This document shows, one piece after another, positions 7,063 through 46,137 of a stretch of DNA of 64,000 bases. The translations under genes were made by a program, and so were the position numbers. The notes below the pieces were generated by a model, which saw only the letters and a list, made by a program, of their open reading frames with translations, made no database searches and was not told where the DNA came from. Each line of letters begins with the position of its first letter. Position 1 is the stretch's first letter. Origin of the DNA: an uncultured Clostridia bacterium (GTDB lineage Bacteria > Bacillota > Clostridia > TANB77 > CAG-508); the NCBI GenBank assembly GCA_944388935.1, contig CALXKK010000002.1:12421-76420 (forward strand), in the 5' to 3' direction.

Positions 7063-7150
7063 ACTAAGACTCCTTCCTAATAAGAAAAAAATCACTAAAC
7101 CTTCATTGTCAATTTTACTTTATATCCTTTTTACCTATTTGTCAAATCCA

Positions 7151-8259: not shown

Positions 8260-8351
8260 TTCAATATTTCCTTCTACATATAATTTTTTAGGATGTGACT
8301 TTATTTCTAATAAACTTTTTGGATACAGAGCATCTCCACTATTTAAAATTT

Positions 8352-15107: not shown

Positions 15108-15269
15108 CTACTCATCCCCCATTTCACGATCATATTCTTTTTCAAGTTCTTCACCTTTTGATTCGACCTTATCTGCTAAGTTCTTTAACTCATCAGATGT
15201 CATTTTATCTAAATCATATATTCGTCCGTCATAAACTATTCTCCCAAAATTTTCTGTTTCATCTGCCAT
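15108..15269 (-). CDS. Small acidic protein, 53 aa (MADETENFGRIVYDGRIYDLDKMTSDELKNLADKVESKGEELEKEYDREMGDE), the small subunit of module A
   Basis: Below the ORF-track cutoff and found by manual translation. Its stop TAG lies 1 nt before the start of the large gene. It shares the KM(T/S)x(D/E)ELxN motif with the small ORF at 22168..22323. Confidence 0.45.
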   Translation of the reverse strand: MADETENFGRIVYDGRIYDLDKMTSDELKNLADKVESKGEELEKEYDREMGDE

Positions 15270-22338: not shown

Positions 22339-23628
22339 ATGGTGAAGCCTCAATTTAGAGGCAAATTTATGGCACAACAACCAACACAATTTTCAGAATT
22401 AAGTCAACAATATGGACTTATACAAAATAACAGACAGCAAGTAGCAGCTATTGAAAGTCAATTAACAGGTTATTTGGCAAGATTAACTGAACTAAAAACT
22501 CAAAAAACTAATTTAACTAACTTACAACAATTACAAGCACAAAATGCTCAACTATTTACTAGTGATGCACAATCAGCAATAGCTAAGCAACTACAACAAA
22601 TTGACGCAGAAATTAACTCTATTACAGGTTCTGTTCAAAACTTAAGAGATAATGATTTATACAAACAAAAAGATGCAATTGAGAGCGCTTCTAAAGATTT
22701 AGACTCTTATATTGAATCTGCTAACACTAATTATGCATTTAGAAGGGCTGTAGGAGAAGAATTGGTTCGTAGAACTCAAACTAGAATTGACGAACTAACA
22801 GCAGAACAAAGTAAGCCTAATGAATATGTTGCATTTATAGAAAAATTACAAAGTATAGCACAAAACGACCCTAGTTTAAAATCTATTCTTTCATCTATTG
22901 ACAAAAATAAAGCAGATATTAATAGTTTAAATATTACTAAAACTAGTTTAGATAATCTTGTAAATCAAAGTTCTGATCCAAGAGTAAAAAATAGCATGAA
23001 AGCTTCTTATATAACTATTAATAAAGGTATTGCAGACAAAACAACTGATTTAAATTCAAAATCTGATGATTTAAAGAAATACATATCAGACCATAGAGAA
23101 GATTTTGGTCTTCCAGCTGGTACAGATGACTTAAACTTCGATGATGCTACATCACCATTATCAATTGTTTCTGTATATACAGATCCTAATGAAAATAAGG
23201 GATTAGATGACTTAAAGGCTGAATATGCAAATATAGTAAATATCTCAAGCGATAGAATTGAAGAACTTAACAAACTAAATAGATTTTTAGATTATGCGGA
23301 ACATGATTTAGATACTGTAAGAGAAGAAGAACTTGAAAATATGTATACTCCATTTTTCACTAAAGTTAAAGTATTCTTTATAAACTTAAAAAATAGATTT
23401 GTAAGTTGGGCTAAAGACAAAGAAGCTCCTAAACCTATTAAAGCTCCACCAAGAGGTGCTGAAGTAGTAGGAAGTCATTCAGATTTTATAAATTCTATAC
23501 ACACAGAAATTGGACAAGATGCAATTGCAAAAGTTGCACAAAAATATGAGCAAAAATATGCACAAGAAAAAGCGCAACAGCAGCAACAAACATCACATAA
23601 CACACCGGATAATGGTCAAGAAAGATAA
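22339..23628 (+). CDS. Coiled-coil, Gln/Asn/Ser/Asp-rich protein (~419-429 aa), the large subunit of module B
   Basis: Predicted helical and low-complexity, with the hydrophobic patch MYTPFFTKVKVFFINLKNRFVSWAKDK at the same relative position as the RITMFFSKF... patch of the 13865..15106 protein. Start is ambiguous: 22339 (ATGGTG) or 22369 (MAQQPTQF). Confidence 0.6.
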   Translation: MVKPQFRGKFMAQQPTQFSELSQQYGLIQNNRQQVAAIESQLTGYLARLTELKTQKTNLTNLQQLQAQNAQLFTSDAQSAIAKQLQQIDAEINSITGSVQNLRDNDLYKQKDAIESASKDLDSYIESANTNYAFRRAVGEELVRRTQTRIDELTAEQSKPNEYVAFIEKLQSIAQNDPSLKSILSSIDKNKADINSLNITKTSLDNLVNQSSDPRVKNSMKASYITINKGIADKTTDLNSKSDDLKKYISDHREDFGLPAGTDDLNFDDATSPLSIVSVYTDPNENKGLDDLKAEYANIVNISSDRIEELNKLNRFLDYAEHDLDTVREEELENMYTPFFTKVKVFFINLKNRFVSWAKDKEAPKPIKAPPRGAEVVGSHSDFINSIHTEIGQDAIAKVAQKYEQKYAQEKAQQQQQTSHNTPDNGQER

Positions 23629-28559: not shown

Positions 28560-30539
28560 TTATTTGTTTTCTTTCTTTGGTTTTGTCCAAGATATATAAT
28601 CACATTTTTCTGGATTATTTTCGCATATATAAAATTTCTTTCTAGTTTTAGTTCTTCTTATTTGAACTTTGCCTCCACATTTTGGACATGGCTCATCTAT
28701 TGTTTCTATATATGGTTTTGTATTTTTGCATTCTGGATAACCAGGACATGCTAAGAACTTTCCATATCTACCATATTTTATAACCATCATTCTGCCACAT
28801 TTTTCGCATGGTATATCGGAAACTTCCTCATGCAATTCCACATGTTCCAAGTCTTTTTCAACTTTTTCCAATTCTTTTTCGAAAGGTCCATAGAATTCCG
28901 AAATCATTTCTTTCCAGTTTTCTTTTCCCTCTGCAATTTCATCAAATTCATTTTCTATTTTTGCTGTAAATTCTACATTAATTATATCTGGAAAATTTTC
29001 TATTAACAATTTATTTACAACCTTACCAAGTTCGGTTGGAACTAGTTGTTTACCATCTTTTTCTATATAGTTTCTTGTTATAATAGTTGTTATAGTTGGT
29101 GAATATGTACTTGGTCTACCAATTTCTTTTTCTTCTAAAGCTTTTACTAAACTTGCCTCTGTATATCTTGGTGGTGGTTCTGTAAAACTTTGCTTAGATT
29201 CTATTTTTTCCTTTTTTAGTTCTTGGTTAACCTCCAACATTGGTATTTGACCAATTTCAGCTTCTTTTTCATCCGTTCCTTCTACATATAAAATCATAAA
29301 TCCTTTAAATTTAACAGATTGACCATTTGCTTTAAAATTATATGTATTTGCATCAATCGTTACAGCTAAGGTGTCAAATATAGCTGATTTCATTTGACTT
29401 GCTAAAAATCTATTATAAATTAATCTATATAGTTTATACTGGTCATTAGTTAATGAATCTTTTATTTGCTCAGGTTCTATATCTATATAAGTCGGTCTAA
29501 TAGCCTCATGAGCATCTTGCGCATCTGCTTTTGTTTTGTAGTATCTATTTTCATAGTATTCACTACCATAAGTGCTTTCTACAACTTCTTTTGCGACCCT
29601 TCTTGCTTCTTCTGATATTCTTGTAGAGTCAGTTCTCATATATGTAATTAAACCAACTGTACCTTTTTCAGGAATTTTTACTCCTTCATAAAGTGTTTGT
29701 GCAACAGACATAGTCTTCCTTAAGCTGAAATTTAGTTTTCTAGAAGCTTCTTGTTGCATTGTACTTGTTGTAAAAGGTGGTGCAGGATTTCTCTTTCTTT
29801 CTCCTTTTTTCACATCTTTTACAATAAATTTTGCGCGCTTTATATGTTTTAATATTTCGTCAACCTCTTCTTTATTATGTATTTCTATCTTTTTATTGTC
29901 CTTACCAACTAGTTTTGCTTCAAAAGATTTTTGGCTTTTATTATCTATTAGTTTAGCAATTATATTCCAATACTCTTCTGGTACAAAGTTTTCAATCTCA
30001 TTTTCTCTGTCCACAATTAGCTTAACAGCAACAGATTGAACTCTTCCCGCAGATAGTCCTTTTCTTACTTTTTTCCATAAAAGTGGACTAATTTTATATC
30101 CTACAATTCTATCTAGCACACGTCTTGCCTGTTGAGCATTTACCAAGTTTATATCTATTTTTCTTGGCTCTTTCATTGCCTTTTGAACAGCTGTCTTAGT
30201 AATCTCATTAAAAGTTACCCTAGATTTACTATCTTCTGGAATATCCAATATATGTGCCAAATGCCAAGCTATAGCTTCTCCCTCACGATCAGGGTCAGTT
30301 GCAAGATATACTTGCTTTGCTGACTTAGCATCTTTTTTTAATGATTTTATTAAATCACCTTTTCCTCTTATGTTAATATATTCCGGTTCGAAGTTATTTT
30401 CTATGTTAACTCCCAATTTTGATTTAGGTAAATCTCTAATATGTCCCATTGATGCAACAACTTTTGTTCTTCCTCCAAGAAACTTTTTTATAGTGTTTGC
30501 TTTTGCTGGTGATTCTACTATTATTAATTTATCTGACAT
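28560..30539 (-). CDS. topA: DNA topoisomerase I
   Basis: 659 aa. Toprim (LIIVESPAKA) and the topo IA core are followed by C-terminal Zn ribbons (CEKCGRMMV...CPGYPEC, CPKCGGK). Confidence 0.95.
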   Translation of the reverse strand: MSDKLIIVESPAKANTIKKFLGGRTKVVASMGHIRDLPKSKLGVNIENNFEPEYINIRGKGDLIKSLKKDAKSAKQVYLATDPDREGEAIAWHLAHILDIPEDSKSRVTFNEITKTAVQKAMKEPRKIDINLVNAQQARRVLDRIVGYKISPLLWKKVRKGLSAGRVQSVAVKLIVDRENEIENFVPEEYWNIIAKLIDNKSQKSFEAKLVGKDNKKIEIHNKEEVDEILKHIKRAKFIVKDVKKGERKRNPAPPFTTSTMQQEASRKLNFSLRKTMSVAQTLYEGVKIPEKGTVGLITYMRTDSTRISEEARRVAKEVVESTYGSEYYENRYYKTKADAQDAHEAIRPTYIDIEPEQIKDSLTNDQYKLYRLIYNRFLASQMKSAIFDTLAVTIDANTYNFKANGQSVKFKGFMILYVEGTDEKEAEIGQIPMLEVNQELKKEKIESKQSFTEPPPRYTEASLVKALEEKEIGRPSTYSPTITTIITRNYIEKDGKQLVPTELGKVVNKLLIENFPDIINVEFTAKIENEFDEIAEGKENWKEMISEFYGPFEKELEKVEKDLEHVELHEEVSDIPCEKCGRMMVIKYGRYGKFLACPGYPECKNTKPYIETIDEPCPKCGGKVQIRRTKTRKKFYICENNPEKCDYISWTKPKKENK

Positions 30540-30627
30540 TTCATTCTCCTTTTTAGTTATAGATAATTTCTATAATCTTTATATCTATAGTATTTTAGTT
30601 CATATATTCGTTTTTTTCAAGTATTTT

Positions 30628-30930
30628 TTAACATTTAGCTAAATCTTGCACAACATCTTTTAATGCAACAGGCGTTACTTCATTTCTTTTTAAAAGATTT
30701 AATATAGAATTTTCAATCTCTTCATCATTAGTAAGTTTATCTACTGAAGCTTTCTCCACATTTACTTTCTCATTTATATATTCTGTTTTTACTACTTCTA
30801 CACCAAATATATCATTCTTACTCTTTAAATCTTTAATCTTATAATATTCCAATTTTATTGGATATAAAATTCCTTCTCTTCTTAATTCTTCTTTATTCAT
30901 AAACATTCCTCCAAAAAAAGTTTTCATTTG
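30628..30930 (-). CDS. Hypothetical protein (~91-100 aa)
   Basis: ORF with GGAGGA 5-6 nt upstream of ATG 30930 (MKTFFGGMFMNKEEL...); an alternative start lies at 30903. The ORF-track 116-aa version begins upstream of the RBS. Confidence 0.5.
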   Translation of the reverse strand, partial: QMKTFFGGMFMNKEELRREGILYPIKLEYYKIKDLKSKNDIFGVEVVKTEYINEKVNVEKASVDKLTNDEEIENSILNLLKRNEVTPVALKDVVQDLAKC

Positions 30931-31018
30931 ATTCCTCCTACATGTCTTTTTGTATTTACTAATATATACTCTTAACATTAGCTATGCAAGACAAATCGAA
31001 TGCCTATTTTCGAGGAAT

Positions 31019-31111
31019 TTCGACAATTATTTTTTATTTTATAAAAATAGATGTCGAAATCTTTTTTATTATATTTTATTATGTAATTTCCTCTTGGCAA
31101 CAAAAGTCGAA
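31019..31111. promoter_or_regulatory. Cluster of Spo0A-box-like motifs (TGTCGAA): perfect on minus strand at 31019-31025, perfect on plus strand at 31052-31058, imperfect AGTCGAA at 31105-31111
   Basis: Direct sequence match to the 0A-box consensus TGNCGAA. Located upstream of the 30628..30930 gene. Chance occurrence in an AT-rich genome cannot be excluded. Confidence 0.3.
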
Positions 31112-31146
31112 AAAAATCTCTTTGGGTAAAATTCCCAAAAAGATTT
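31105..31146 (-). terminator. Intrinsic terminator ending the murG-coupled operon
   Basis: aaaatctctttggg taaaatt cccaaaaagatttt: a 14-bp stem with one mismatch, followed by T7 on the minus strand. Confidence 0.65.
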
Positions 31147-31150
31147 TTTC

Positions 31151-31927
31151 TTAAGCTCCCATCATCGCATTAAAAGCTGAATTAATTTTACTTTTATTAT
31201 CTTCCATTTGTAACGCAAACTCAAATATTTGGTTATATAATATTCCAATAGATTTTTCTACTTCACCAGTTAATTGTACAATATGGTCCTCTGATGGTTT
31301 TAGAACATAATTTTCAAAATTTTTCTTTCTATTAAGTTTTTTTATTAAATTATTAAAAAACTCTAAGATCTTACTTTTCTTTTTTGTTGTGACATCCAAT
31401 TTTTCATTAATTTTTATTTTATCAGAAAAATCGCTTATTTGCTCTATACATTCTTCTAGCCTATCATTACATTCAGCTACAATTGTCTCATAATTTAGTT
31501 TCTTTTGAATAGAAGCATTAATTTTATTTGTATAATAATGTATTTTTTCTGAATCATTTTCTTCTATTGCTTTTTCTAGATTTTGTTTATTTATACTAAT
31601 ATTAGTTACAACAATAACTTCTGATTGTAAAGCTGCAGATAGTTCTCTTTGTATATTTACATATCTTGTACTACATACATCAAATAATTTATCCAATTGC
31701 TTTTTATATTGTTCTACTAAATTCTCTATTTCTGTTTTGTATCTTTCTAAAGAATTATAATAATTTGCTTGTACATATAGTCCATCTTTAAATTCTGTTA
31801 ATCTAATCTCTTTGCTATTTGACAATGAATTTTCAAATAAAATTGCCAAATTCATTTGCTTTTGGTTTTCTACATCTACAAGTTCCTTTAAATCTTCTTT
31901 AAAGTTGTCTTTTGTAATTGTTGTCAT
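31151..31927 (-). CDS. Hypothetical alpha-helical protein, 258 aa
   Basis: Long ORF whose start overlaps the stop of the upstream gene (ATGA). No recognisable family. Confidence 0.55.
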   Translation of the reverse strand: MTTITKDNFKEDLKELVDVENQKQMNLAILFENSLSNSKEIRLTEFKDGLYVQANYYNSLERYKTEIENLVEQYKKQLDKLFDVCSTRYVNIQRELSAALQSEVIVVTNISINKQNLEKAIEENDSEKIHYYTNKINASIQKKLNYETIVAECNDRLEECIEQISDFSDKIKINEKLDVTTKKKSKILEFFNNLIKKLNRKKNFENYVLKPSEDHIVQLTGEVEKSIGILYNQIFEFALQMEDNKSKINSAFNAMMGA

Positions 31928-32328
31928 TATCTTTCACCACCTTTATCAAATACTTTGTTTCCTACATTTCTAACTCCATTACCAACCATATCTAATGTTG
32001 GGTCAGCAACTGTTCTTTGCAAAGTATCTTTAGTTGCTTGAACTGAAGTTCTAACAGAATCCATTGGCGATTTTTGTTTATCTAGAATGCAATTATCAAT
32101 AACTAAATCTTTAAACAATTTTGCTGTAATTATAGCAGGTCCAAAAAGATACATTGTGCCAACTGTCATCCCTATACCTAATACTTTTTTTACCGGGCTA
32201 CTTTTAATTATACCCCCTGCTGCTCTCATAGTATTTCTGCCAATGAATTTTCCACCTTTTTCAAATCCCTTTAAAGAATATTTTCCTACTGTTTTTGCTC
32301 CTTTTATTGCAACACTTCCTACACTCAT
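31927..32328 (-). CDS. Hypothetical Gly/Lys-rich protein with one hydrophobic segment, 133 aa
   Basis: MSVGSVAIKGAKTVGKYSLKGFEKGGKFIGRNTMRAAGGIIK...VLGIGMTVGTMYLFGPAIITAKLF. GGAGG RBS. Its start overlaps the stop of the 54-aa ORF (TAATG). Confidence 0.55.
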   Translation of the reverse strand: MSVGSVAIKGAKTVGKYSLKGFEKGGKFIGRNTMRAAGGIIKSSPVKKVLGIGMTVGTMYLFGPAIITAKLFKDLVIDNCILDKQKSPMDSVRTSVQATKDTLQRTVADPTLDMVGNGVRNVGNKVFDKGGER

Positions 32329-32492
32329 TAAATCTTCCTCCTAATACAATCTAAATAGTTAGTTACATGTTCATCTATTCTGTCCTGTATTTCGGTTTCT
32401 TTAATAGTTAAATTGTTAAGTTCTTTTCTTATTAGATTTGTATCCACCGAATCAATTTCTTGCAATTTTCCATTTACAAAAACTCCATTCAT
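32328..32492 (-). CDS. Hypothetical small protein, 54 aa (MNGVFVNGKLQEIDSVDTNLIRKELNNLTIKETEIQDRIDEHVTNYLDCIRRKI)
   Basis: Manual translation. A strong RBS AAGGGAGGTG lies 8 nt upstream and overlaps the last codons of murG, implying coupling to murG. Confidence 0.45.
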   Translation of the reverse strand: MNGVFVNGKLQEIDSVDTNLIRKELNNLTIKETEIQDRIDEHVTNYLDCIRRKI

Positions 32493-32507
32493 TTGGCAGC
32501 ACCTCCC

Positions 32508-33629
32508 TTATCTTTTGTTAATTAATTTTTCTATTTCTTTGTATATTTTATCTTCTACATCTTTCATAACAATTTTTTTAGCGTTTTTACCCATTTGAAT
32601 TAATTTCTCTTTATCGCTGATTGTTTCTTCTATCATTTTGTTTAAAGATTCTCCGTTTATTTCATTATCATGTATTATTTTTGCAGCACCTACATTTACC
32701 AATACTTTCGCATTATATTCTTGATGATTTTCCGCTGCAAATGATAATGGAACAAATATAGCTGGTCTTCCAGAAATAGACACTTCTGTTATAGTCATTG
32801 CACCACTTCTACATACTATTAAGTTAGCTGCAGCCATTGCTTTTTGCATATCATAAATATATGGTACTACTTTTACATCTTCTATATTTTCTATATTTAT
32901 ATTCTTTTCTTTTAATTGCTCTTTTATTATATCATATTGGCTTTTACCAACTGACCATAAAATTTGATAATTTTTATTTAAGTTCTTTTCTATTATTTCT
33001 TCTAATGCAAGATTAATTGGTCTTGCTCCTTGGCTTCCACCAAATACCAATATTAAAGTTTTATCTGTCTTTAAACCATTTTCTTTTAAGAACTCATCCT
33101 TTTCTGTTTGAGAAAATTCTACATCTTTAAATTTTGTAGGAGTTCCTGTTAAAACTATATTTTTAGCATTGTGAATTTTAGCTCTAGCATCTTCAAATCC
33201 AATTAAAATTGTATCCACTCTTTTTGCTAATAATTTTACTGTTACACCTGGGAACGCATTACTTTCGTGAAGCATTGTAGGTATTTTTTTCTTTGATGCA
33301 GCAAGCAATACTGGTCCACAAATAAATCCCCCTGTACCTATTACAATATCTGGTTTTTCTTCTTTTAAAATCTTTTTAGCTTCTCCAAATCCCTTTAATG
33401 TTTTAAACATCTTTTTTATATTATCTAAAGAAATTCTTCTTTCTATTCCATAAGCTTCGATAGTTCTTAGCTTATATCCAGCTCTTGGTACTAAGTCATT
33501 TTCCAAACCTCTTTTAGTTCCAACAAAAACTATTTCTGCATCTTTATTTTCTTCCTTTATTTTATTTGCTATCGCAATTCCTGGATTTATATGCCCACCA
33601 GTTTGTGAAGCTGCAATTATTACTTTCAT
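32508..33629 (-). CDS. murG: UDP-N-acetylglucosamine--N-acetylmuramyl-(pentapeptide) pyrophosphoryl-undecaprenol N-acetylglucosamine transferase MurG
   Basis: 373 aa with the GT28 N- and C-domains (IAASQTGGHINPGIAIA ... GGSQGA). Confidence 0.9.
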   Translation of the reverse strand: MKVIIAASQTGGHINPGIAIANKIKEENKDAEIVFVGTKRGLENDLVPRAGYKLRTIEAYGIERRISLDNIKKMFKTLKGFGEAKKILKEEKPDIVIGTGGFICGPVLLAASKKKIPTMLHESNAFPGVTVKLLAKRVDTILIGFEDARAKIHNAKNIVLTGTPTKFKDVEFSQTEKDEFLKENGLKTDKTLILVFGGSQGARPINLALEEIIEKNLNKNYQILWSVGKSQYDIIKEQLKEKNINIENIEDVKVVPYIYDMQKAMAAANLIVCRSGAMTITEVSISGRPAIFVPLSFAAENHQEYNAKVLVNVGAAKIIHDNEINGESLNKMIEETISDKEKLIQMGKNAKKIVMKDVEDKIYKEIEKLINKR

Positions 33630-33657
33630 TTTTTATATCCTTTCTTTTTTACTATTT

Positions 33658-34815
33658 TTAAATCTTCGAACCTGCTCTAGATATATTTAGCAGTAATCCT
33701 ACTGAACATAATAATATTAATAATGATGTAACACCATAACTAAAGAATGGTAATGGCATTCCTGTTACTGGCATAGATGATGTTACAACCGCAATATTTA
33801 TTATTGCTTGTAATCCTATTAAAGATGTAATTCCAACTGCTACCAAACTTCCAAACATATCTGGCGCTTTCATAGCTGCTAATATACCTCTCCAAATAAA
33901 CACACCAAATAAAATTATAACTATTGCACAACCTACAAATCCCAATTCTTCTGCCAAAACTGCAAAAATGAAATCCGTATGTGGCTCAGATATGTATAAA
34001 TATTTTTGTTTACTATTACCTAGTCCAACGCCAAATAATCCACCAGAACCAATAGCATAAAGACTCTGAATTACTTGCCAACCATCACCTTGTTTATCTG
34101 CCCATGGATTTAAAAATGATGTTATTCTCGCAATTCTAAATGCACCCTTACTAGTAAATTTGGCCATTAAATACAATCCTGCTACTCCAAGTGCTGCCAC
34201 GCCACTACCTACAGTTGCAAAATATTTTGGTCTTACACCTGCCATAAGCATCATTATTCCAACAACTAAAACAATTATTATTGTTGCACTTAAATGGTCT
34301 TGTATAAGTATTAGAATTAGTACAACTGGTATTAAATATGCAAGAGGTTTTAAAAAGCCTTTTTTAAAATCCTTTAGCTCATCTTTATGGTCTGTTAAAT
34401 AACTTGCATAAAATATTATTAAACCTATTTTAGCCAACTCTGAAGGTTGGAATTGAACGCCTAAATTTATCCATCTTTTAGCACCACCTGCTGAAACACC
34501 AATTCCCGGAATTAGCACCATAAGTAATAAAACTATTGAACCAATATATGCAATTTTATAAAATTTCTTCCAATACCTATAATCAATCTTAGAAATAAAT
34601 AACATTGCTACAACACCAACTGCAGCAAATATAGCTTGTTTTCTAAAGTATGAATAACTATCATCACCTGTTTCTGCAAGGGATGTAGGTGAACTTGCTG
34701 AAAGTACCATTATTAATCCAAGAGATAATAATAAAATAACAGTTATTAATAAGATAAAATCCATTTGATTATTCGCAAATTTTGAAAATCTTCTTACTTT
34801 TTTATTTTTAGCCAT
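33658..34815 (-). CDS. ftsW: FtsW/RodA/SpoVE (SEDS) family peptidoglycan glycosyltransferase
   Basis: 385 aa with about 10 TM helices, placed between mraY and murG in a dcw context. Confidence 0.85.
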   Translation of the reverse strand: MAKNKKVRRFSKFANNQMDFILLITVILLLSLGLIMVLSASSPTSLAETGDDSYSYFRKQAIFAAVGVVAMLFISKIDYRYWKKFYKIAYIGSIVLLLMVLIPGIGVSAGGAKRWINLGVQFQPSELAKIGLIIFYASYLTDHKDELKDFKKGFLKPLAYLIPVVLILILIQDHLSATIIIVLVVGIMMLMAGVRPKYFATVGSGVAALGVAGLYLMAKFTSKGAFRIARITSFLNPWADKQGDGWQVIQSLYAIGSGGLFGVGLGNSKQKYLYISEPHTDFIFAVLAEELGFVGCAIVIILFGVFIWRGILAAMKAPDMFGSLVAVGITSLIGLQAIINIAVVTSSMPVTGMPLPFFSYGVTSLLILLCSVGLLLNISRAGSKI

Positions 34816-37386: not shown

Positions 37387-39363
37387 TTATATATCAATAT
37401 AAACTTTCGTTTCTTTAGTTATTTTTATTCCTGGTTTAGGAATTTGTTCCTTTACATATGTTTCACTTTCATTTATTTCATCTGTAGAATTACTTATTTC
37501 TAGCTCCAATCCCAACTCTTTTAATGTCTTTCTTGCATCCTTTACAGTCATATTTCTAATTTCCGGCATTTCTACTTCTTCCTTTTGAGTTTCTTCGCTT
37601 TCTTTATCCTGCTTTAGTTCTAAGTATGGCAATACTTCTCCTAATATTTGGCCACCTACTGGTGCAGCAACTCCACCTCCCTGGTGTCCTCCTTCTCCTG
37701 TTGGATTATATAAAGTAACCAAAATAACAACTTGTGGGTCAGAGATTGGTGCAACTCCCATAAATGATGTTACATATTTATTTGTATTAACTCCATCTTC
37801 TGAAGTTCCTGTCTTTCCTCCAACTAAATATCCTTGCACTTGTGCATTTCTTCCTGTTCCATCTTCTACTACAGATTGCATCATACTTAAAATATTTTTT
37901 GCTGTTTCTTCTGAGATAACTCTATTTTCTTTCTTTACTTCTATATCCTGTTTTTCTCCTGTACTTGAATCTATTATTGCTTTAACTACCCTTGGTTCCA
38001 CATATTCTCCACCATTTGCTATGCTAGAAACCGCTGTTACCATCTGAATTGGAGTTACCTCAAATCTTTGACCAAAACTTATTGTTGCAAGTTCTACTGG
38101 TCCTACTTTATCCTTATCCAAGAATATTCCTTTTGCTTCTCCCGGCAGATCTATATTTGTTTTCTTAAAAAAACCAAATTTATCTAGATATTCATAATAT
38201 TTATCCTTCCCTATCTTTTGACCTAGAGCAATAAATACTGGATTGCACGAATTCATAAGGGCTTCCCTCAAGCTTTGCCTTCCGTGAGGTCTGTAATATC
38301 TCCAGCATTTTATTCTAACTCCTGCAATATCTATTCCTCCACCACAATTAAATTCTCCTTCATTATCTGTTTTCGTTATTCCCTCTTCTAATGCTGCTGA
38401 AGAAGTTATTAATTTAAATACTGAACCCGGCTCATATGTATCTGCAATTGCCTTGTTCCTCCACTTTGCCTGTAACTGTTTGTTTTTATCGCTATTACTC
38501 ATATTCTCACTATTATCTAATTCATATGGATTATTTAAATCATAATTTGGATATGTAGCCATTGCTAATATGTCTCCATTATTTGGATTCATAATAATTA
38601 CATTTCCACCATCTGTGCATTCGTTATCTATACAAGCATTTTCAAGATATTTTTCTACAATAGATTGAATTGTTAAATCTATTGTTAAAACTAAATCTTT
38701 TCCCTTTTCTGCAGCCACATAATTTTCATCTAACTGTCCAATATCTCCACCCTTTGCATCTGTTACCTTCTCAATTTTTCCACTCTTACCTTTTAAAATA
38801 TCATCATATTTTGCTTCAATTCCATCTAATCCCTGATTATCACTTCCACAAAATCCAATAACTTGAGATGCCAAAGTACTATATGGATAATATCTTTTTG
38901 TATCTTCATCTATATTAATTCCAGATTCTATATTATTTTCTTTCATCCACTCTCTTAATTCATTTGTTTTATCTTTTTCAACCTTCTTAGCAATCGTTTC
39001 TATAGAACTTCTTTTCTTTACTTTTTTTAGAGTTTCCTCATAATCCAAGCCTAAAATATCCGATAAAGCCTTACTTACCAATTCTTTCTTATCATCCGGA
39101 ATATTGATAGAATTAACTGTTACAGTTTCTACAGTACTACTTTGGGCCAATATATTTTTTCCACTTGCATCATAAATAGTCCCTCTTTTTGAAGTTACTT
39201 TTCTGTTTAGAGTTTGCTGCTCGTATGCCATTTGTTTTAGCTTATTTCCATCTACAAATTGAATAATAGCAAGTCTTACTATTAATAATATAAGCAATAT
39301 TAAAGATACTGCTATAATCCATAACATCATTTTTTTATTTTTTATACTACAAACTGTTTGCAT
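37387..39363 (-). CDS. Class B penicillin-binding protein (FtsI/SpoVD/PBP2B-like) with C-terminal PASTA domain
   Basis: 658 aa. An N-terminal TM and dimerisation domain are followed by a transpeptidase domain with SVFK, SSN and KTGT and a C-terminal PASTA domain (MPEIRNMTVKDARKTLKELGLE). Confidence 0.9.
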   Translation of the reverse strand: MQTVCSIKNKKMMLWIIAVSLILLILLIVRLAIIQFVDGNKLKQMAYEQQTLNRKVTSKRGTIYDASGKNILAQSSTVETVTVNSINIPDDKKELVSKALSDILGLDYEETLKKVKKRSSIETIAKKVEKDKTNELREWMKENNIESGINIDEDTKRYYPYSTLASQVIGFCGSDNQGLDGIEAKYDDILKGKSGKIEKVTDAKGGDIGQLDENYVAAEKGKDLVLTIDLTIQSIVEKYLENACIDNECTDGGNVIIMNPNNGDILAMATYPNYDLNNPYELDNSENMSNSDKNKQLQAKWRNKAIADTYEPGSVFKLITSSAALEEGITKTDNEGEFNCGGGIDIAGVRIKCWRYYRPHGRQSLREALMNSCNPVFIALGQKIGKDKYYEYLDKFGFFKKTNIDLPGEAKGIFLDKDKVGPVELATISFGQRFEVTPIQMVTAVSSIANGGEYVEPRVVKAIIDSSTGEKQDIEVKKENRVISEETAKNILSMMQSVVEDGTGRNAQVQGYLVGGKTGTSEDGVNTNKYVTSFMGVAPISDPQVVILVTLYNPTGEGGHQGGGVAAPVGGQILGEVLPYLELKQDKESEETQKEEVEMPEIRNMTVKDARKTLKELGLELEISNSTDEINESETYVKEQIPKPGIKITKETKVYIDI

Positions 39364-39467: not shown

Positions 39468-41843
39468 TTATTTTAAATATAATTTCACAAAATCCAAATT
39501 CAAATTTTCCTCATCTTTTTTTGCAGTTTTTATAAATTCTTCCACCATTTCTTTTGTGTATTTACTGCTTTTCTTTTCATAAAATTTTTTTAGAGGTTTT
39601 TGTAAATCCATCATAACTTTTGTTGCTTTATTTACATTTTGTACTTTCATTAATTCATTCATTTTTTCCATCTCATGCTCAAAAATCACCTTGCCAATTT
39701 TTGTGTTTTTAAATTGTTCTAAAGTATTTTCGTCTGTTAAATCTTGCAAATCTATATATCTAGTAGGAATTTTATGCCCTAATATTTCCTCAAAATCTTT
39801 ATCACTTACATTATCTATTGTTCCATTAATGTAATCTGCTGGATATTTTTTATCACTAATTACATTACTACTTTCAATATTTATTTTTTCACTTAAAACA
39901 ATATCTTGAATATTTTTTCCTATATAAATGTCGTATATTCCAGGTTCGATACTCCATTTTCCTTGGCTTACATCAAAAAAGGCTAAGTCTTGTTTTCCAA
40001 TTTTTATTATTACTTCCTTTTCTTCATCTGGTTGTAACTCTACCTTTTTAAACCCTTTTAATTCTTTTTTTGCTCTATATATTTTAGAATCTTCTTTCCC
40101 AACATATACTTGTGCTATTTCATTTCCACTAACTGTACCAACATTTTTTATTTTAAATTTTACTATGATGTTATTTGTATCTTGACTAATATTCAAACTA
40201 GAATACTCAAATTTTGTATAACTTAAGCCATATCCAAATGGAAATAAAACTTCTTTTTGTACTTTATCATAATATCTATATCCAACGAAAATTGCCTCTT
40301 TATATTCAACACTTACTTCTGTTCCTGGATAATAATTAAAACAAGGGGTATCTTCAAGTTTTAATGGATATGTCTCTGCTAATTTTCCACTAGGATTTAC
40401 CCTTCCACTTAAACAATTTGACATTGCTTCTGCGCCTGCTTCTCCACCTAAATATCCTGTAATTATAGCCTTTACCTTATCTTTCCATGGCATTAAAATT
40501 GGAGAACCATTTGATAACACTACCACAATATTTCTATTTACATTATATATAGCTTCTATTAATTTATTTTGATTATCTGGAATATCTAATTTAGTTCTGT
40601 CCATTCCTTCTGATTCGAAATTTTCTGTAAGTCCAACACATATAACTACAATTTCATTGCTTTTAGCAATTTCTATTGCTTCTTTTCGTAATTTTTCATC
40701 GTTTTCACTTTCTATTCTTTCATATCCTTGTGCATAAGTACATTCAAATCCTTGCTCTTTTAAACAGTCTAATAAATTTGTTAATTTATATGGATTTATA
40801 GTAGAACTTCCAGCTCCTTGATATCTTGGATTTTTAGCCATATCTCCGATTACCGCAATTTTTCTATTTTTTATTGGCAATATATTTTCTTCGTTTTTTA
40901 ATAAAACTATAGAATCTTCCGCTAAACTTCTTGCTATATTATGATGTTCATTTCTATCATATTCTTTTAAGTTTTCTCTCTCTGATGCTTTAAATGCATA
41001 TTCTAGAATTCTGCTTACTACTTCATTTAAATATTCTTCTGATATTTTTCCTTCTTTAACTGCTTGTATAATTTCTTCCTTACCATTTCCTCTTCCTCCA
41101 GGCATTTCTATTTCATTACCTGCAATTAATCCAGAAACCCTATCATTTTCTGCACCCCAGTCAGTTATAACCAAACCATTAAATTTCCATTCTTTTCTTA
41201 ATATATTCATCAATTCTTGATTTTCGTTGCAATACTTTCCATTAAGCTTATTATATGCACTCATAATACTCCAAGGCTTTGCCTCTTTTACTATCATTTC
41301 AAAAGCTTTTAAATATATTTCTCTTAATGTTCTCTCATCTACCACTGCATTTATAGTTCTTCTTCTGTTCTCTTGATTATTTACCGCAAAATGTTTTACA
41401 CATGCTCCTACTCCATTTAATTGCAAACCTTTTACATATTCTGTAGCAAGTACTCCTGTTAAATATGGGTCTTCGGAAAAATACTCAAAATTTCTGCCAC
41501 ATAAAGGTGTCCTTTTTATGTTTATAGCAGGACCCAATACAATATCCACATTCTCATAAGAAGCTTCTTCTCCTAAACTTTTTCCTAATAAAAAGGCTGC
41601 TTCTTTATTCCAACTATTTGCTATTGTAGATGATGCAGGAAAGCATGTAGAAATCTCACTTTCATTTATTCCTAAATTATCAGCCTTCGTTTTTTGAACT
41701 CTTAATCCATGAGGTCCATCTGACATAGTAATACTTGGAATATTAAGTCTTTCTATATTTTTACTATGCCAATAGTCCCCTCCAACGCATAAACTTGCTT
41801 TTTCCTCTAATGTCATACTCTCTATTAATTCTTTATATTTCAT
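39468..41843 (-). CDS. Glycoside hydrolase family 3 beta-glucosidase (BglX-like) with C-terminal Fn3-like domain
   Basis: GH3 motifs KHFAVNNQE, SAYN and GLVITDWGA (the catalytic Asp). Start ATG 41843 (MKYKELIESMTLEEK) has GGAGGT 5 nt upstream. Confidence 0.85.
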   Translation of the reverse strand: MKYKELIESMTLEEKASLCVGGDYWHSKNIERLNIPSITMSDGPHGLRVQKTKADNLGINESEISTCFPASSTIANSWNKEAAFLLGKSLGEEASYENVDIVLGPAINIKRTPLCGRNFEYFSEDPYLTGVLATEYVKGLQLNGVGACVKHFAVNNQENRRRTINAVVDERTLREIYLKAFEMIVKEAKPWSIMSAYNKLNGKYCNENQELMNILRKEWKFNGLVITDWGAENDRVSGLIAGNEIEMPGGRGNGKEEIIQAVKEGKISEEYLNEVVSRILEYAFKASERENLKEYDRNEHHNIARSLAEDSIVLLKNEENILPIKNRKIAVIGDMAKNPRYQGAGSSTINPYKLTNLLDCLKEQGFECTYAQGYERIESENDEKLRKEAIEIAKSNEIVVICVGLTENFESEGMDRTKLDIPDNQNKLIEAIYNVNRNIVVVLSNGSPILMPWKDKVKAIITGYLGGEAGAEAMSNCLSGRVNPSGKLAETYPLKLEDTPCFNYYPGTEVSVEYKEAIFVGYRYYDKVQKEVLFPFGYGLSYTKFEYSSLNISQDTNNIIVKFKIKNVGTVSGNEIAQVYVGKEDSKIYRAKKELKGFKKVELQPDEEKEVIIKIGKQDLAFFDVSQGKWSIEPGIYDIYIGKNIQDIVLSEKINIESSNVISDKKYPADYINGTIDNVSDKDFEEILGHKIPTRYIDLQDLTDENTLEQFKNTKIGKVIFEHEMEKMNELMKVQNVNKATKVMMDLQKPLKKFYEKKSSKYTKEMVEEFIKTAKKDEENLNLDFVKLYLK

Positions 41844-41898
41844 AAATACCTCCACATTTTTATTTAAATAATATATCATAATATATTAATTTTAACAA

Positions 41899-41971: not shown

Positions 41972-42835
41972 ATGCCAATGTTCTCCATCGTAGTTCCCGC
42001 TTACAATGCAGAACGCACTTTGCGGGAATGCCTAGAAAGCATCGTAGCACAAACTTTCACAGACTTTGAGGTCATCATCGTAAACGATGGTTCCACCGAC
42101 AAAACTGTGGAAATCGCTACCAACTTTTCGAAAAAGGACCCCAGAATCAAGCTGTTTAGCTTTTTAAACTCTGGAGTCTCGGAAACTCGTCGGCGGGGTT
42201 TGTCTTTGTCTTCTGGAGAATACATAATCCAGGTTGATTCGGACGACTCCATTAATAAGGATTTGTTGTCTCGCATTAAAGCTGCAATTAACAGCTTCGA
42301 TTCTCCTGATCTCATCAGATTTCAGTGTGAACTTATAGATGACAATCCGAACAAAGATCATCAGCGATACAATTGCAACTCCATGTTGTACCGCCAAATG
42401 TCGGGAATGGAAGCCCTAAAGTTATGGTCCAAACCTGGCAAAAAATATGCACTCTATTGGCTTTACGCAGTGAAGAAGGAAGTCTTCTCCGATGTACTTC
42501 TTTTTCCTCCACTGCGTTGCTACGAAGACGTTGCACTAATTCCTCTCTTGATTGCTAAGTCCAGAACTGTTGTTACTATTGGCTATGTTGGTTACAACTA
42601 CCAATATGTGAGTAAATCCAGTCTCACTAACACAGGAGGAATAGATTCAGAAAGGAAACGCGCTCAAGACTTCGTAGATGCATGCCATCTTGCAGTTGAA
42701 CACTTTATGAAACTTGCTAATATTACCACTAGTGATTTGGCATTCTTCGTGAATGACTTCAACATGCGACTGGAGGATAAGTTCCAATCTCTCCCACCCG
42801 AACTTCAGGATGAGATGTACGATCTCTTCCACTAA
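41972..42835 (+). CDS. Family 2 glycosyltransferase (GT-A fold), strongly atypical composition (~45-50% GC)
   Basis: MPMFSIVVPAYNAERTLRECLESIVAQTFTDFEVIIVNDGSTD ... QVDSDD (DxD). The many spurious overlapping ORFs on both strands here reflect stop-codon-poor GC-rich DNA. Confidence 0.85.
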   Translation: MPMFSIVVPAYNAERTLRECLESIVAQTFTDFEVIIVNDGSTDKTVEIATNFSKKDPRIKLFSFLNSGVSETRRRGLSLSSGEYIIQVDSDDSINKDLLSRIKAAINSFDSPDLIRFQCELIDDNPNKDHQRYNCNSMLYRQMSGMEALKLWSKPGKKYALYWLYAVKKEVFSDVLLFPPLRCYEDVALIPLLIAKSRTVVTIGYVGYNYQYVSKSSLTNTGGIDSERKRAQDFVDACHLAVEHFMKLANITTSDLAFFVNDFNMRLEDKFQSLPPELQDEMYDLFH

Positions 42836-42910: not shown

Positions 42911-43732
42911 TTAATTATTTTTATCCAATATTATATTTAGCATATATGCTAGTCCATCATCATCATTTGTCTTTGTTTCATAATTTGCAAATCCTTTTAC
43001 ATATGGACTTGCATTACCCATTGCTACAGAATTACCTGTAGTCTTAAACATGGAAATATCATTTTCTCCATCCCCAATTGTTACTACCTCTTGTGTAGAA
43101 TCATATAGTTTTTTTATTAATTTTTCTACTGCTCGTCCTTTTGAAACTCCTTTATTAATAACATCACAATAATACGTAGATGGATCTGGTAAAGTTTCAT
43201 CTGTTAGTTTTTTAGATTCATTTTCTATTTTTTGATTTTTAAAATTCGCATAGAAAAATCTCTTAAATTCTTTCATTTTATCTATATTCTCATTCATTAT
43301 AACACATTGAACTACTTCTTTATTTTTTATAATATCTAATATCTCTTCATCAGTTTTAATATATTCTTTTTCATCCGGATAAAATGCTCTATTAATTGCT
43401 AATTTATCTTCATAATTAAATTTTATATTAAAGCCATTTTCTTTTACATAATCATATAGAATTTTTACTTTGTTTTTGTCAATGGGATTAGAAAAAATTG
43501 TCTTGTTTGTTTTTGCATCATAAACTTCCGCACCATTAGATGAAATAATATAATCACTTACATCTAAGTCTTTCCTAAATTTTAGCATATTCTCCCTTGA
43601 CCTACCAGAAACAAGTATAACTTGTAAACCTTCATCTTTACATCTTTTTAAAGTTTCTCTCGTGTATTCAGACACTTCTCTATTACTATTTTTTAATGTT
43701 CCATCAATATCTGTAAAAACTGCTTTAATCAT
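42911..43732 (-). CDS. Cof-type HAD-IIB family hydrolase (sugar phosphatase-like)
   Basis: MIKAVFTDIDGTL ... VILVSGRS ... GDGENDISM are HAD motifs I-IV. Confidence 0.8.
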   Translation of the reverse strand: MIKAVFTDIDGTLKNSNREVSEYTRETLKRCKDEGLQVILVSGRSRENMLKFRKDLDVSDYIISSNGAEVYDAKTNKTIFSNPIDKNKVKILYDYVKENGFNIKFNYEDKLAINRAFYPDEKEYIKTDEEILDIIKNKEVVQCVIMNENIDKMKEFKRFFYANFKNQKIENESKKLTDETLPDPSTYYCDVINKGVSKGRAVEKLIKKLYDSTQEVVTIGDGENDISMFKTTGNSVAMGNASPYVKGFANYETKTNDDDGLAYMLNIILDKNN

Positions 43733-43852
43733 TTTCACACCCACTTCATAATTTTATATTTCATATTATAACTCAATATTCTAAAAAAAGAAATACCAAT
43801 TTTAAAACAAAAAAAGGAAATTTATGACTAACCCAAAATCCATTGAGTAGAC

Positions 43853-44368
43853 CTAATTTCCTTTTATTTTATCAATTATTTTAGAAAGCCAACTTTTTTG
43901 CGTTGTTGTTTCTGTATTATCTGTTGAAGATTGTACATAATCTTTCTTTGGTAAATTTATATAAATTTTTTGATCATTTGTTAGTTTTTGCATTCCAAGT
44001 TTACTTTTTGCTTCTTCTTCTATTTTATTCAAATTAACATTGCTTTCTATTGATACTTCTGTTTGTTGATTTTCCTTTTGTAATGTTGTAAGTTCTTCTT
44101 TTAATGATTTTACCTTATTAAAATCTTCTGTTATTAAAGAGTTCCTATAGCTAATGACTAGTAGCATTGCAAAAACTAAACTGATATATACAACAACTTT
44201 TTTCTTTAATAAGCGTGCTGCCCTTTTTTGCTTTGCTTTTTCTTGTGCTTCTTGCTTTATTTTTTCTTTTAATTCTCTTTGTTCTTCCTGCCATCTTTTT
44301 GACTTTCTATTAGGTATAAAGTCCGGCTCTAGTTTTCTAGGACTTGTTTCGTATTGGTATCTAGCCAT
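43853..44368 (-). CDS. ftsL: Cell division protein FtsL/DivIC-like (septum formation initiator)
   Basis: 171 aa. A basic N-terminus, a single TM (VVVYISLVFAMLLVISY) and an extracellular coiled coil. Located directly downstream of rsmH. Confidence 0.7.
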   Translation of the reverse strand: MARYQYETSPRKLEPDFIPNRKSKRWQEEQRELKEKIKQEAQEKAKQKRAARLLKKKVVVYISLVFAMLLVISYRNSLITEDFNKVKSLKEELTTLQKENQQTEVSIESNVNLNKIEEEAKSKLGMQKLTNDQKIYINLPKKDYVQSSTDNTETTTQKSWLSKIIDKIKGN

Positions 44369-44389: not shown

Positions 44390-45319
44390 TTATTTTCTTT
44401 CGAAAATTCTTAATTTTGCACTTTTACTTCTAGAATTTTCGTTTTGTTCCTCCTTAGTAGCAATAATTGGTTTTTTATTTATAATTTTTCCATATGATAC
44501 AGCACCACATACACAATATGGTAAATCTTTTGGACATGTACATCTACCTTCTGCTTTTACATATGCTCTTTTTACCGCTCTATCTTCCAAAGAATGAAAT
44601 GTTATTATACATAATCTTCCGCCCGGTTTTAAACAATTAATACATTTTAAAACTGTATCATATAAAGGTTCTATCTCATTATTAACCTCTATTCGAATCG
44701 CTTGAAAAGTTCTTTTTGCAGGATGCCCATTATTTTGTTTAGATTTAGGAATAGAATTTTCTATTATCTTAACTAATTCTGCAGTTGTTTCTATTGGCTT
44801 TTTCTTTCTTTCTATGCAAATATTTTTTGCTATATGTCTGGAAAATCTCTCTTCTCCATATTCATATATAATATTTGCTAATTTTTCTTCTGGATAATTA
44901 TTAACCACATCTCTTGCAGTTAATTCTTGAGTTTTATCCATTCTCATATCTAATTTATTCTCTCCTAAGTAACTAAATCCTCTGTTACGTTCATCCAATT
45001 GATATGAAGAAACTCCCAAATCTAATAAAATTCCGTCTACACCATCTATATTTAAAGATTGCATTATAGCATCTATATCATCATGATTTCCATGTATATA
45101 TTTTACGTTGTTATAATCTTTCAAATTATTTTTGGCTGCTTCTATAGCTTCTAAATCTCTATCTATGCCTATTAATAATCCATTATTTGATAATCTTTTT
45201 AAAATTTCTTTACTATGTCCTGCTCCACCAAGTGTTCCATCTATATAAATTCCGTCTGGTTTTATATTTAATCCTTCTATACATTCATTAAGTAAAACAG
45301 GTTTATGTTTAAACTCCAA
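44390..45319 (-). CDS. rsmH: 16S rRNA (cytosine1402-N4)-methyltransferase RsmH (MraW)
   Basis: Canonical RsmH (EFKHKPVLLNECIEGL ... DGTLGGAGHS). Probable TTG start at 45319 with GGAGGG 6 nt upstream; the ORF-track ATG at 45340 lies upstream of this RBS. Confidence 0.9.
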   Translation of the reverse strand: MEFKHKPVLLNECIEGLNIKPDGIYIDGTLGGAGHSKEILKRLSNNGLLIGIDRDLEAIEAAKNNLKDYNNVKYIHGNHDDIDAIMQSLNIDGVDGILLDLGVSSYQLDERNRGFSYLGENKLDMRMDKTQELTARDVVNNYPEEKLANIIYEYGEERFSRHIAKNICIERKKKPIETTAELVKIIENSIPKSKQNNGHPAKRTFQAIRIEVNNEIEPLYDTVLKCINCLKPGGRLCIITFHSLEDRAVKRAYVKAEGRCTCPKDLPYCVCGAVSYGKIINKKPIIATKEEQNENSRSKSAKLRIFERK

Positions 45320-45353
45320 TACATACCCTCCATCCATCATTTTTTGAATAGCA

Positions 45354-45705: not shown

Positions 45706-46137
45706 TTATATACCTAACATTGTCATATTCTCTGCAATACTATCTGCAGATATATTTTCTTCACTGTTGTATTCTTCCCATTTGTTTTTGTTCCAAATTT
45801 CAATTCTTGTCCCAACACCTATTATAACAACTTCTTTTTCTAGTGTTGCAACTTTTCTTAAATTACTAGATATTAAAAATCTTCCTTGTTTATCTATTTC
45901 GCATTCCATTGCTCCAGATAAGAAAAATCTTACAAAATCTCTAGCATTTTTATTGGTAAGTGGAAGTGTTTTTAATTTTGTTTCGAAGTTTTCCCATTCT
46001 TGTTGTGAGAAACCAAATAAACATCCATCTAGCCCCTTAGTTATTATGAACTTTTCGCCCATATCTTCTCTTAGCTTTGCTGGCATTATTAATCTGCCTT
46101 TGGCATCTAAGGAATGTTCATATTGGCCAATTAGCAC
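45706..46137 (-). CDS. mraZ: Transcriptional regulator MraZ
   Basis: 143 aa with two MraZ/SpoVT-AbrB-like repeats ([14 protein letters not shown] ... [13 protein letters not shown]). GTG start with GAGGTG upstream. Confidence 0.9.

Follow-up and report, generated by a model that had tools for sequence, protein, structure and literature searches.

A previously undescribed three-gene module coupled to murG in uncultured gut Clostridia and its possible role in peptidoglycan synthesis

Introduction

Cytoplasmic helical or coiled-coil adaptors such as FtsA, SepF, GpsB, EzrA and DivIVA reach the inner leaflet of the bacterial membrane via amphipathic helices and organise the peptidoglycan (PG) synthases, and in the dcw clusters of Firmicutes the gene for FtsQ/DivIB usually follows murG/murB. 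The divisome of Clostridia is far from canonical, and the adaptors missing from it “remain to be discovered” (PMC10693644). Lineage-restricted accessory division operons do occur in Clostridia, an example being MldABC of C. difficile, a three-gene operon of mid-cell division proteins whose function is still unclear (PMC13584725, PMC10693644). Here, we describe a trio of translationally coupled genes, p54, p133 and p258, that directly follows murG on a 64,000-nucleotide (nt) stretch of DNA, hereafter the window, from an uncultured Clostridia bacterium of order TANB77, family CAG-508 (GenBank assembly GCA_944388935.1, contig CALXKK010000002.1, positions 12,421 to 76,420 of the forward strand). 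TANB77, an uncultured order prevalent in the human gut, has reduced genomes and has been associated with the response to immunotherapy (PMC11680825). The three genes of the trio are genuine, translationally coupled and conserved, and purifying selection acts on them; both the three protein families and the composition of the module are previously undescribed. The module is found in operons with two different PG glycosyltransferases, MurG in one clade and a GT51 enzyme, together with a bitopic membrane protein of ~277 amino acids (aa; b277), in another. The role that we propose for it, that of a membrane-peripheral helper of PG synthases, would itself be of a familiar kind.

The nearest conceptual precedent for the trio would, by analogy, be MldABC. 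Both are three-gene operons of a narrow Clostridia lineage that encode small or medium-sized non-enzymatic proteins tied to septal or cell-wall processes, and both MldA and b277 are single-pass membrane proteins with an extracellular domain. However, the SPOR domain that defines MldA found no match in p54, p133, p258 or b277, no sequence relationship between the two systems was detected in the family searches, which covered Mld through this domain, and localisation and phenotype have been established for Mld, whereas the trio is known here from its genes alone. We know of no Mld genes that adjoin murG or a GT51 gene.

The trio stands last in the dcw block, in the slot of FtsQ/DivIB, whose topology is echoed by the short basic N-terminus, single transmembrane helix and ~230-aa external domain of b277. 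Nevertheless, neither the trio (E ≤ 1) nor b277 (E ≤ 0.01) matched the POTRA or FtsQ families of Pfam (PF08478/PF03799) or a corresponding structure in the PDB, where the b277 profile returned nothing significant. The trio also differs from FtsQ/DivIB in lacking a bitopic member, as p54 and p258 have no transmembrane segment and that of p133 is marginal; all three proteins are cytoplasmic by prediction. The job proposed below for the trio is of the same kind as that of FtsA, SepF, GpsB, EzrA and DivIVA, but the trio is not homologous to them, consists of three subunits and is limited to low guanine-cytosine (low-GC) gut Clostridia-like lineages.

The murG transcription unit

The open reading frames (ORFs) of the trio lie directly downstream of murG and are exactly 54, 133 and 258 aa long, as stated in the initial annotation of this DNA (Table 1). 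The Pfam domains Glyco_transf_28 and Glyco_tran_28_C are precomputed for the identical murG product in metagenome loci L003-L005. A gap of 15 nt separates the TAA stop codon of murG from p54, whose ATG stands 7 nt past the Shine-Dalgarno site GGGAGGTG; the core of this ribosome binding site (RBS) is thus located just past the murG stop codon and not over the last murG codons, where it had been placed. Sites of the AGGAGG/GGGGG type occur at the equivalent position in 15 related genomes. The p54/p133 and p133/p258 junctions both read TAATG, the stop and start codons overlapping by one base, which upholds the reported stop/start overlaps with the exception of an ATGA junction, none of which was found in the window. 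Both p133 (AGGAGG) and p258 (GGTGGTG) have a Shine-Dalgarno site of their own within the preceding gene.

The unit is closed by the single terminator that had been noted after the trio, a strong hairpin (−25.7 kcal/mol; z = −5.85 against shuffles, with 0/200 shuffles equally stable) with a U-run. No other terminator-like element was detected on the minus strand of positions 30400..34000, and none between murG and p258; hairpins also follow p258 in most related genomes. The base composition and GC content of the trio are those of its flanks, and an Rfam scan revealed no RNA element in or near it. By every sequence criterion, the trio would be co-transcribed with murG.

Upstream, the minus strand carries a PASTA-bearing class B penicillin-binding protein (bPBP) gene, murE, mraY, a SEDS gene of the ftsW/spoVE type and murG, in this order. 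The trio does take the last position of the dcw block, in which ftsQ, ftsA and ftsZ would usually be expected; none of these three genes follows murG, and the FtsZ signature motif is absent from the whole 64-kb window.

Conservation in the CAG-354-like clade

The exact trio proteins were found on metagenome contigs with identical neighbours, and homology searches returned only unnamed relatives, down to 55–60% identity. When one genome per species was scanned, 15 metagenome-assembled genomes were returned, all under the label uncultured Clostridia or Clostridium and with “Clostridium sp. CAG:354” among them; GTDB places the genus CAG-354 in order TANB77, family CAG-508 (bioRxiv 10.1101/2021.05.11.441322). 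The gene order ftsW-murG-p54-p133-p258 was retained in all 15 of these species-level genomes, and DUF6514-topA-SNF2 followed beyond p258 wherever the contig reached that far (12/15). Identity to the window ranged from 78–94% for murG, 60–86% for p258 and 50–85% for p54 to 40–74% for p133. ORF lengths and the TAATG overlap of p54 and p133 were unchanged throughout, while the p133/p258 overlap was present in 12 genomes and replaced in the remaining three by a 14–18 nt spacer with a strong RBS. The median pairwise ratio of nonsynonymous to synonymous substitution rates (dN/dS) was 0.32 for p54, 0.49 for p133 and 0.12 for p258, against 0.10 for murG. The constant lengths, order and coupling across 15 genomes, together with the low dN/dS, indicate that the three ORFs are protein-coding genes under selection. 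Syntenic conservation of the trio and retention of the small ORF, two checks suggested at the outset, thus both came out in favour of the initial annotation.

On two contigs, L001 and L002 (s6060.ctg006760l, s22608.ctg028351l), murG, murE, the penicillin-binding protein gene and topA are each split into two or three fragments and p54 is uncalled. The same genes are intact in short-read contigs of the same species, and the fragmentation is probably frameshift error of long-read assembly rather than pseudogenisation.

The module outside the clade and its link to GT51

An exhaustive HMMER profile search of 1.84 billion representatives recovered about 45 full-length distant relatives of p258 (243–307 aa, ~20–25% identical), which have the motifs FYG/YYN, NQKIAIxN, QKKLNY-x5-EC-x6-C and GKxKF in common. 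Their genomic contexts were retrieved in part by looking up the exact proteins and in part by scanning metagenomes for the NQKIAIAN motif in back-translated form. A p54-like gene (50–61 aa) was present on the same strand, ≤700 nt from the p258-like gene, at every locus with sufficient flanking sequence (28/28, the window included), 12/12 of those outside the CAG-354 clade among them, and an iterated p54 profile collected 44 members, all but one of which lie beside p258-like genes. A p133-like gene adjoined the p258-like gene at 23 of the 28 loci. A word-indexed homology search with the divergent p133 profile found no relatives outside the clade. From the frequency of the p54-like and p133-like neighbours, the trio is a portable module and not an oddity specific to murG. 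The strict lineage specificity that had been suggested for it consequently does not hold, given that other low-GC lineages have the module too, in different surroundings; its attachment to murG is the one feature confined to the CAG-354-like clade.

In six diverged lineages the module forms part of an operon with the order b277-p54-p133-p258-GT51, with gaps of 4–37 nt and one 8-nt overlap. The b277 gene encodes a 269–287-aa single-pass membrane protein with an external domain, and the last gene encodes a 241–255-aa monofunctional transglycosylase of the GT51 family (Pfam PF00912, E 1e-58 to 1e-62, with which precomputed annotations agree). Across the six lineages, identities are 37–60% for the p258-like proteins, 25–53% for b277 and 53–79% for GT51. 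MurG, a GT28 enzyme, makes lipid II, and GT51 enzymes polymerise it. The GT51 operon lends independent support to the cell-envelope role that had been suggested for the trio from its position after murG. As other contexts of the module are not PG-related, its association with PG synthesis is suggestive and not universal.

About 1.5 kb downstream of the GT51 operon, at L106:11378-12621 and likewise in L107 and L108, the opposite strand carries genes for CotJA, CotJB and a CotJC-like Mn-catalase, followed by a PP2C phosphatase gene, as in L062. The proximity of these spore-coat genes points to spore formation in the GT51-linked hosts.

A variant architecture comprises a p258-like gene whose product has a ~35-aa insertion, two flanking p54-like genes and then genes for A/G/K-rich proteins of 461–535 aa. 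The latter proteins (L025:2843-4126, L063:998-2605, L025:1474-2859) are built of A/G/K/V-rich repeats of ~11 residues (VRDGAVxGATA...), for which a Synuclein match was sub-threshold (E 0.004), and in L025 their genes precede one for a 427-aa protein that contains an HELTH (HExxH) motif and is unmatched in Pfam. A natural fusion was found in L102, where residues 1–298 of a 524-aa protein match the whole p258 profile (E 4.5e-14) and residues 387–475 match the A/G/K repeats (40% identity, E 4e-13). A kinship of p133 itself to the 11-residue-repeat proteins is not claimed, given an hhalign probability of ≤1%.

The neighbours of the module in L102, at 6133-8777, encode a protein of 386 aa that bears the HipA-like kinase motif DRHFGNFG, as well as two GYD/GYN-rich repeat proteins (191 and 283 aa), and a ParB gene lies 4 kb upstream; this is the only context with some flavour of a mobile or conflict element. 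A tblastn search of the module against 72,556 plasmids and 50,697 phages gave no match, and no copy was found in viral contigs. As the GC content is also like that of the surroundings, a mobile-element origin is unsupported.

Properties of the three proteins

The p54 protein is acidic (isoelectric point, pI, 5.2) and contains no Trp. Members of its family (50–61 aa) conserve an N-terminal G-x-[FIV]-x-x-G-[KR]-x-[ILV] motif followed by a probable helix, and the C-terminus YLDCIRRKI is near-invariant in the 15 related genomes.

In contrast to p54 and p258, which are both acidic, p133 is very basic (pI 10.1, net charge +12). It is indeed rich in Gly (14%) and Lys (12%), as had been remarked. Residues 1–48 contain 11 K/R against one D/E, as well as nine Gly, and have a strong helical amphipathic periodicity (power 26–36 at 3.6–3.8 residues, versus 9 in shuffles); the most conserved element of the family, AKT-GKY[ST]LKG, falls in this Gly/Lys-rich N-terminus. 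The central segment, residues 49–72 (VLGIGMTVGTMYLFGPAII), contains Gly and Pro and is moderately hydrophobic, with a Kyte-Doolittle (KD) value of 1.68, while in several orthologues the corresponding value is only 0.46–0.93 and Arg, Lys or Glu lie within the segment. Around 60 residues follow it, forming a polar, helical C-terminus. The description of p133 as a protein with a single hydrophobic segment overstated the strength of that segment, which is borderline for a transmembrane helix: we do not regard p133 as a firm single-pass membrane protein, and its sequence makes a shallow or buried hydrophobic hairpin more likely than an obligatory transmembrane helix. A discrete 11-residue repeat in p133 is not claimed either, because self-similarity is highest at lag 11 by a marginal amount only.

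The p258 protein has a pI of 5.4 and conserved motifs at Y57, Y74 and N109 (NQKIAIxN in relatives), besides QKKLNY-x5-EC-x6-C. Residues 183–203 (KKSKILEFFNNLIKKLNRKKN) combine the highest hydrophobic moment of the protein (0.61) with its only +5 charge cluster, and the best cationic amphipathic window falls at this alignment position in 22 of 37 relatives. Neither p54 (maximum KD 0.25) nor p258 (maximum KD 0.88) has a hydrophobic segment, and no signal peptide was found in any of the three proteins. The helical character assigned to p258 is reproduced by an all-helical AlphaFold2 model (helices 6–56, 60–122, 126–171, 186–201 and 213–257), albeit one of low confidence with a predicted local distance difference test (pLDDT) score of 52; in this model, the 183–203 region forms a short separate helix. 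The model of p133 scored 46.

Search for known families and folds

Searches of Pfam, NCBIfam, PHROGs and PADLOC with p54, p133 and p258 gave nothing above noise, and the same scans of every member of the broad alignments gave only scattered sub-threshold matches. For PADLOC these were limited to coiled-coil noise from LmuB (E 0.013–0.1), and PHROGs returned nothing below 0.01. Nuclease, kinase or other toxin domains were not found in the trio. WXG100/LXG families of Pfam were unmatched in the trio families, and genes of a type VII secretion system were absent among the neighbours at all loci inspected.

Profile searches of the PDB with family alignments of the trio proteins were negative apart from one match, in which the broad p258 profile aligned with V. 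cholerae MakE (PDB 6w08/6tao; E 0.004) over 100 coiled-coil residues in the C-terminal 40%. This is a weak lead, because the two PDB entries are one protein. A likeness of p54 to the first hairpin and helix of ubiquitin (E 0.015) was judged spurious. When the p258 model was compared with the PDB using Foldseek, nothing was found at E ≤ 0.001 and only generic long-helix proteins appeared, among them Vipp1, PspA and CHMP1B (E 0.13–0.21, template modelling scores 0.30–0.34). These searches, any of which could have placed the trio in a known family, leave its description as uncharacterised intact.

Proposed role of the module

From its gene context, we tentatively favour, at somewhat less than an even chance, a reading in which the trio, cytoplasmic and peripherally bound to the membrane, acts as scaffold or regulator of the PG glycosyltransferases that make or use lipid II. 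In such an assembly, p133 would attach to the anionic inner leaflet via its amphipathic N-terminus and the shallow hydrophobic G/P hairpin, and p258 would form an elongated helical bundle that p133, together with the cationic amphipathic helix of p258 itself (183–203), keeps at the membrane. As the constant partner of p258-type domains, p54 may bind to p258 and cap it or assist its assembly. Coupled translation with murG, or elsewhere with GT51 and its bitopic ~277-aa partner, would match production of the parts, and the assembly could then position or modulate the activity of MurG or GT51 where the wall grows or septa form. Membrane binding, contacts among the three proteins and an effect on MurG or GT51 are all predictions of this proposal. 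It counts in its favour that MurG, FtsA, SepF, MinD and MreB all bind the inner leaflet through amphipathic helices.

Several points weigh against it. The functional link between the trio and PG enzymes is gene neighbourhood alone, and the six GT51 lineages may descend from one ancestral arrangement, hence they are not six independent events. Contexts unrelated to PG include a P-type ATPase and unknown genes in L069, L095 and L024, as well as ParB and a HipA-like gene in L102. The p133 gene evolves fast (dN/dS 0.49), and the character of the hydrophobic segment of its product is not kept; the low confidence of both structural models (pLDDT 52 and 46) leaves the helical bundle and its interfaces as model predictions. 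Finally, the host clade is uncultured (PMC11680825) and the trio is known from sequence alone.

A broader version of the scaffold proposal, which we consider unlikely, is that p54-p133-p258, with b277 where present, constitutes an unrecognised membrane-associated cytoskeletal or scaffold system, and that a second copy in the window does the same for membrane-lipid enzymes. In TANB77 and related low-GC gut Clostridia, such a system would be the organiser of septation, or of lipid II synthesis together with glycan polymerisation; it would replace adaptor roles held elsewhere by FtsQ/FtsA-type proteins and, through the p54-like protein p54b and a 413-aa protein encoded beside plsX-acpP, would serve enzymes of membrane-lipid synthesis. 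If the main proposal, that of a helper of PG synthases, holds, the module would be a new non-homologous accessory set for the bacterial cell-wall synthesis and division machinery. Its signature (p54, p133 and p258, with or without b277 and GT51) can be used for searching, for modelling of complexes and for tests in cultivable spore-forming carriers.

Two alternatives retain the link to the cell envelope. The trio could be a sporulation accessory that works with the dcw SEDS/bPBP pair (SpoVE/SpoVD-like) and GT51 in asymmetric septation, engulfment or cortex synthesis and not in vegetative growth. The window's dcw block indeed holds a SEDS gene and a PASTA-bearing bPBP, spore-forming Firmicutes retain their dcw SEDS genes, which function in sporulation (PMC10693644), CotJA/CotJB/Mn-catalase genes stand 1.5 kb from the module in L106-L108, and L069 has a putative sporulation-type sigma-like gene near it. 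We nonetheless regard this role as improbable, since translation of the trio is coupled to that of murG, a gene required in vegetative growth, and the cotJ genes are on the opposite strand, so that their proximity may be incidental. Nothing among our analyses favours division or sporulation in particular, both of which had been put forward. Alternatively, p258 might coat the membrane, recruited by p133, when the lipid II cycle is perturbed, as part of an ESCRT-III-like envelope-stress module resembling PspA/LiaIH. As modelled, p258 resembles PspA/Vipp1 in its size and helix pattern (a long hairpin plus shorter helices, 220–260 aa), and Vipp1, PspA and CHMP1B were among its weak Foldseek matches. 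The combination of a helical protein of ~220–260 aa with a small membrane-associated partner recalls liaI-liaH, cationic amphipathic elements that may bind the membrane are present in both p133 and p258, the module is linked to lipid II enzymes, and the Lia system is functionally connected to the lipid II cycle. However, neither PspA_IM30 (PF04012) nor Snf7 gave a Pfam match in p258 or 37 family members; the fold matches were non-significant, derived from a pLDDT-52 model and mixed with BAR, SH3BP5 and chemoreceptor helices; the trio has p54 as an additional obligatory small partner; and its constitutive coupling to murG or GT51, with no stress regulon, is unlike the stress-induced lia/psp promoters. 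On balance, a stress module of this type seems unlikely as well.

Two further alternatives are a conflict module and a pore-forming system. A selfish or conflict module (a toxin-antitoxin or abortive infection system, or a polymorphic-toxin or secretion-substrate cassette) could have been inserted after murG and then fixed. Portability and varied contexts agree with this, as do the neighbourhood of ParB, a HipA-like protein, an AAA_14 ATPase and ORFans in L102, the HExxH protein downstream of the module in L025, the fast evolution of p54 and p133, and the combination of a small acidic, a basic and a larger protein, which recalls multi-component toxin-antitoxin systems. Yet PADLOC, PHROGs, plasmids, phages and viral contigs gave no match, GC content is like that of the surroundings, the trio carries no toxin domain, and p258 has a dN/dS (0.12) about that of murG. 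Moreover, the position after murG is fixed in 15 species and the GT51 operon is kept across six lineages down to 37% identity, which argues for vertical inheritance and a host function and makes a selfish origin very unlikely. The remaining candidate is an alpha-helical pore-former or permeabiliser of the ClyA/Hbl/Nhe/Mak or holin type, with p258 as soluble bundle and p133 as membrane-inserting component, for example in autolysis control. Hbl, Nhe and MakABE of the ClyA family are likewise elongated helical-bundle proteins encoded as triplets, the p258 profile has its MakE match, and one of 13 p133 relatives matched Phage_holin_Dp1 below the cut-off (E 0.0033). In contrast to these systems, the trio proteins are mutually unrelated and not paralogues and their operon context is one of housekeeping; p258 has neither a hydrophobic head or tongue nor a secretion signal and, at 258 aa against about 330–400 aa, is ~100 aa shorter than ClyA-family proteins. 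None of the 37 p258 family members matched Bacillus_HBL or ClyA in Pfam, MakE is the one independent PDB match, and the features of a holin are wanting, in that the p133 segment is not conserved as a transmembrane helix and no lysin is adjacent. We therefore consider a pore-forming trio extremely improbable. The favoured proposal and its four alternatives together leave part of the probability to none of them.

A second p54-like pair and other features of the window

The window contains a second p54-like gene, p54b, the product of which (pI 4.2) is found by the iterated p54 profile with an E value of 6.5e-16. It has its own RBS, lies downstream of the acpP terminator and forms, together with the gene for an Ala/Lys/Glu-rich 413-aa protein (pI 9.3) whose ATG comes 1 nt after the p54b stop codon, a unit between plsX-acpP and rnc. 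The 413-aa protein belongs to no Pfam family and is 23% identical over 278 aa to the 524-aa fusion protein of L102 (E 9e-5). Compared directly with the p258 profile it scored only 9 bits, hhalign gave no significant match (probability ≤1%), and direct kinship to p258 is not claimed; the indirect link through the L102 fusion is kept, as a weak one. The pair is a probable paralogous sub-module, and the 413-aa protein probably, on this weak sequence evidence, a distant relative of the p258 superfamily. The pair also mirrors the sub-module of a p54-like and a long A/G/K-rich protein beside the L102 trio, which makes it possible that a single system is present in the window as two halves set apart from each other.

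Table 1. Features of the window and their positions.
Feature	Position	Strand	Description
murG	32508..33629	minus	373-aa ORF, GT28 lipid II synthase; first gene before the trio, not a trio member
Shine-Dalgarno site of p54	32500..32507	minus	GGGAGGTG, read from sequence, directly after the murG stop codon
p54	32492..32328	minus	54 aa
p133	32328..31927	minus	133 aa; start overlaps p54 stop
p258	31927..31151	minus	258 aa; start overlaps p133 stop
Intrinsic terminator	31150..31110	minus	17-bp stem, 7-nt loop, U-run; closes the murG-p54-p133-p258 unit
p54b	15269..15108	minus	53 aa
413-aa protein	15106..13865	minus	Partner of p54b
bPBP	39363..37387	minus	With PASTA
SEDS	34815..33658	minus	ftsW/spoVE-type
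mraZ	46137..45706		
rsmH	45340..44390		
DivIC/FtsL-like	44368..43853		Weak match
HAD hydrolase	43744..42911		
GT2 glycosyltransferase	41972..42835	opposite strand	
GH3 glycosidase	41879..39468		
Inverted repeat	31017..31060		ATTTCGACA-(26 nt, A/T-rich)-TGTCGAAAT
T-box leader	50048..50283	plus	Rfam RF00230, 105.7 bits
ORF downstream of T-box	50439..51647		
429-aa ORF	22339..23628	plus	No Pfam match at E ≤ 0.001
Giant ORF	56157..63911	minus	2584 aa

The dcw cluster of the window is split: mraZ, rsmH and the DivIC/FtsL-like gene are set apart from bPBP-murE-mraY-ftsW-murG by genes for a HAD hydrolase, a GT2 glycosyltransferase and a GH3 glycosidase, and murD and murF are not among the genes of this block. 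Downstream of the trio, the 220-nt spacer between its terminator and the DUF6514 gene contains an inverted repeat that overlaps promoter-like hexamers and may be an operator of the DUF6514-topA unit. The RBS of the DUF6514 gene suggests a start at ~30927 (99 aa) rather than that of the 116-aa ORF. Elsewhere in the window are a 429-aa ORF and a giant ORF, as well as a T-box leader upstream of a further ORF, this leader being the only Rfam match in the window.

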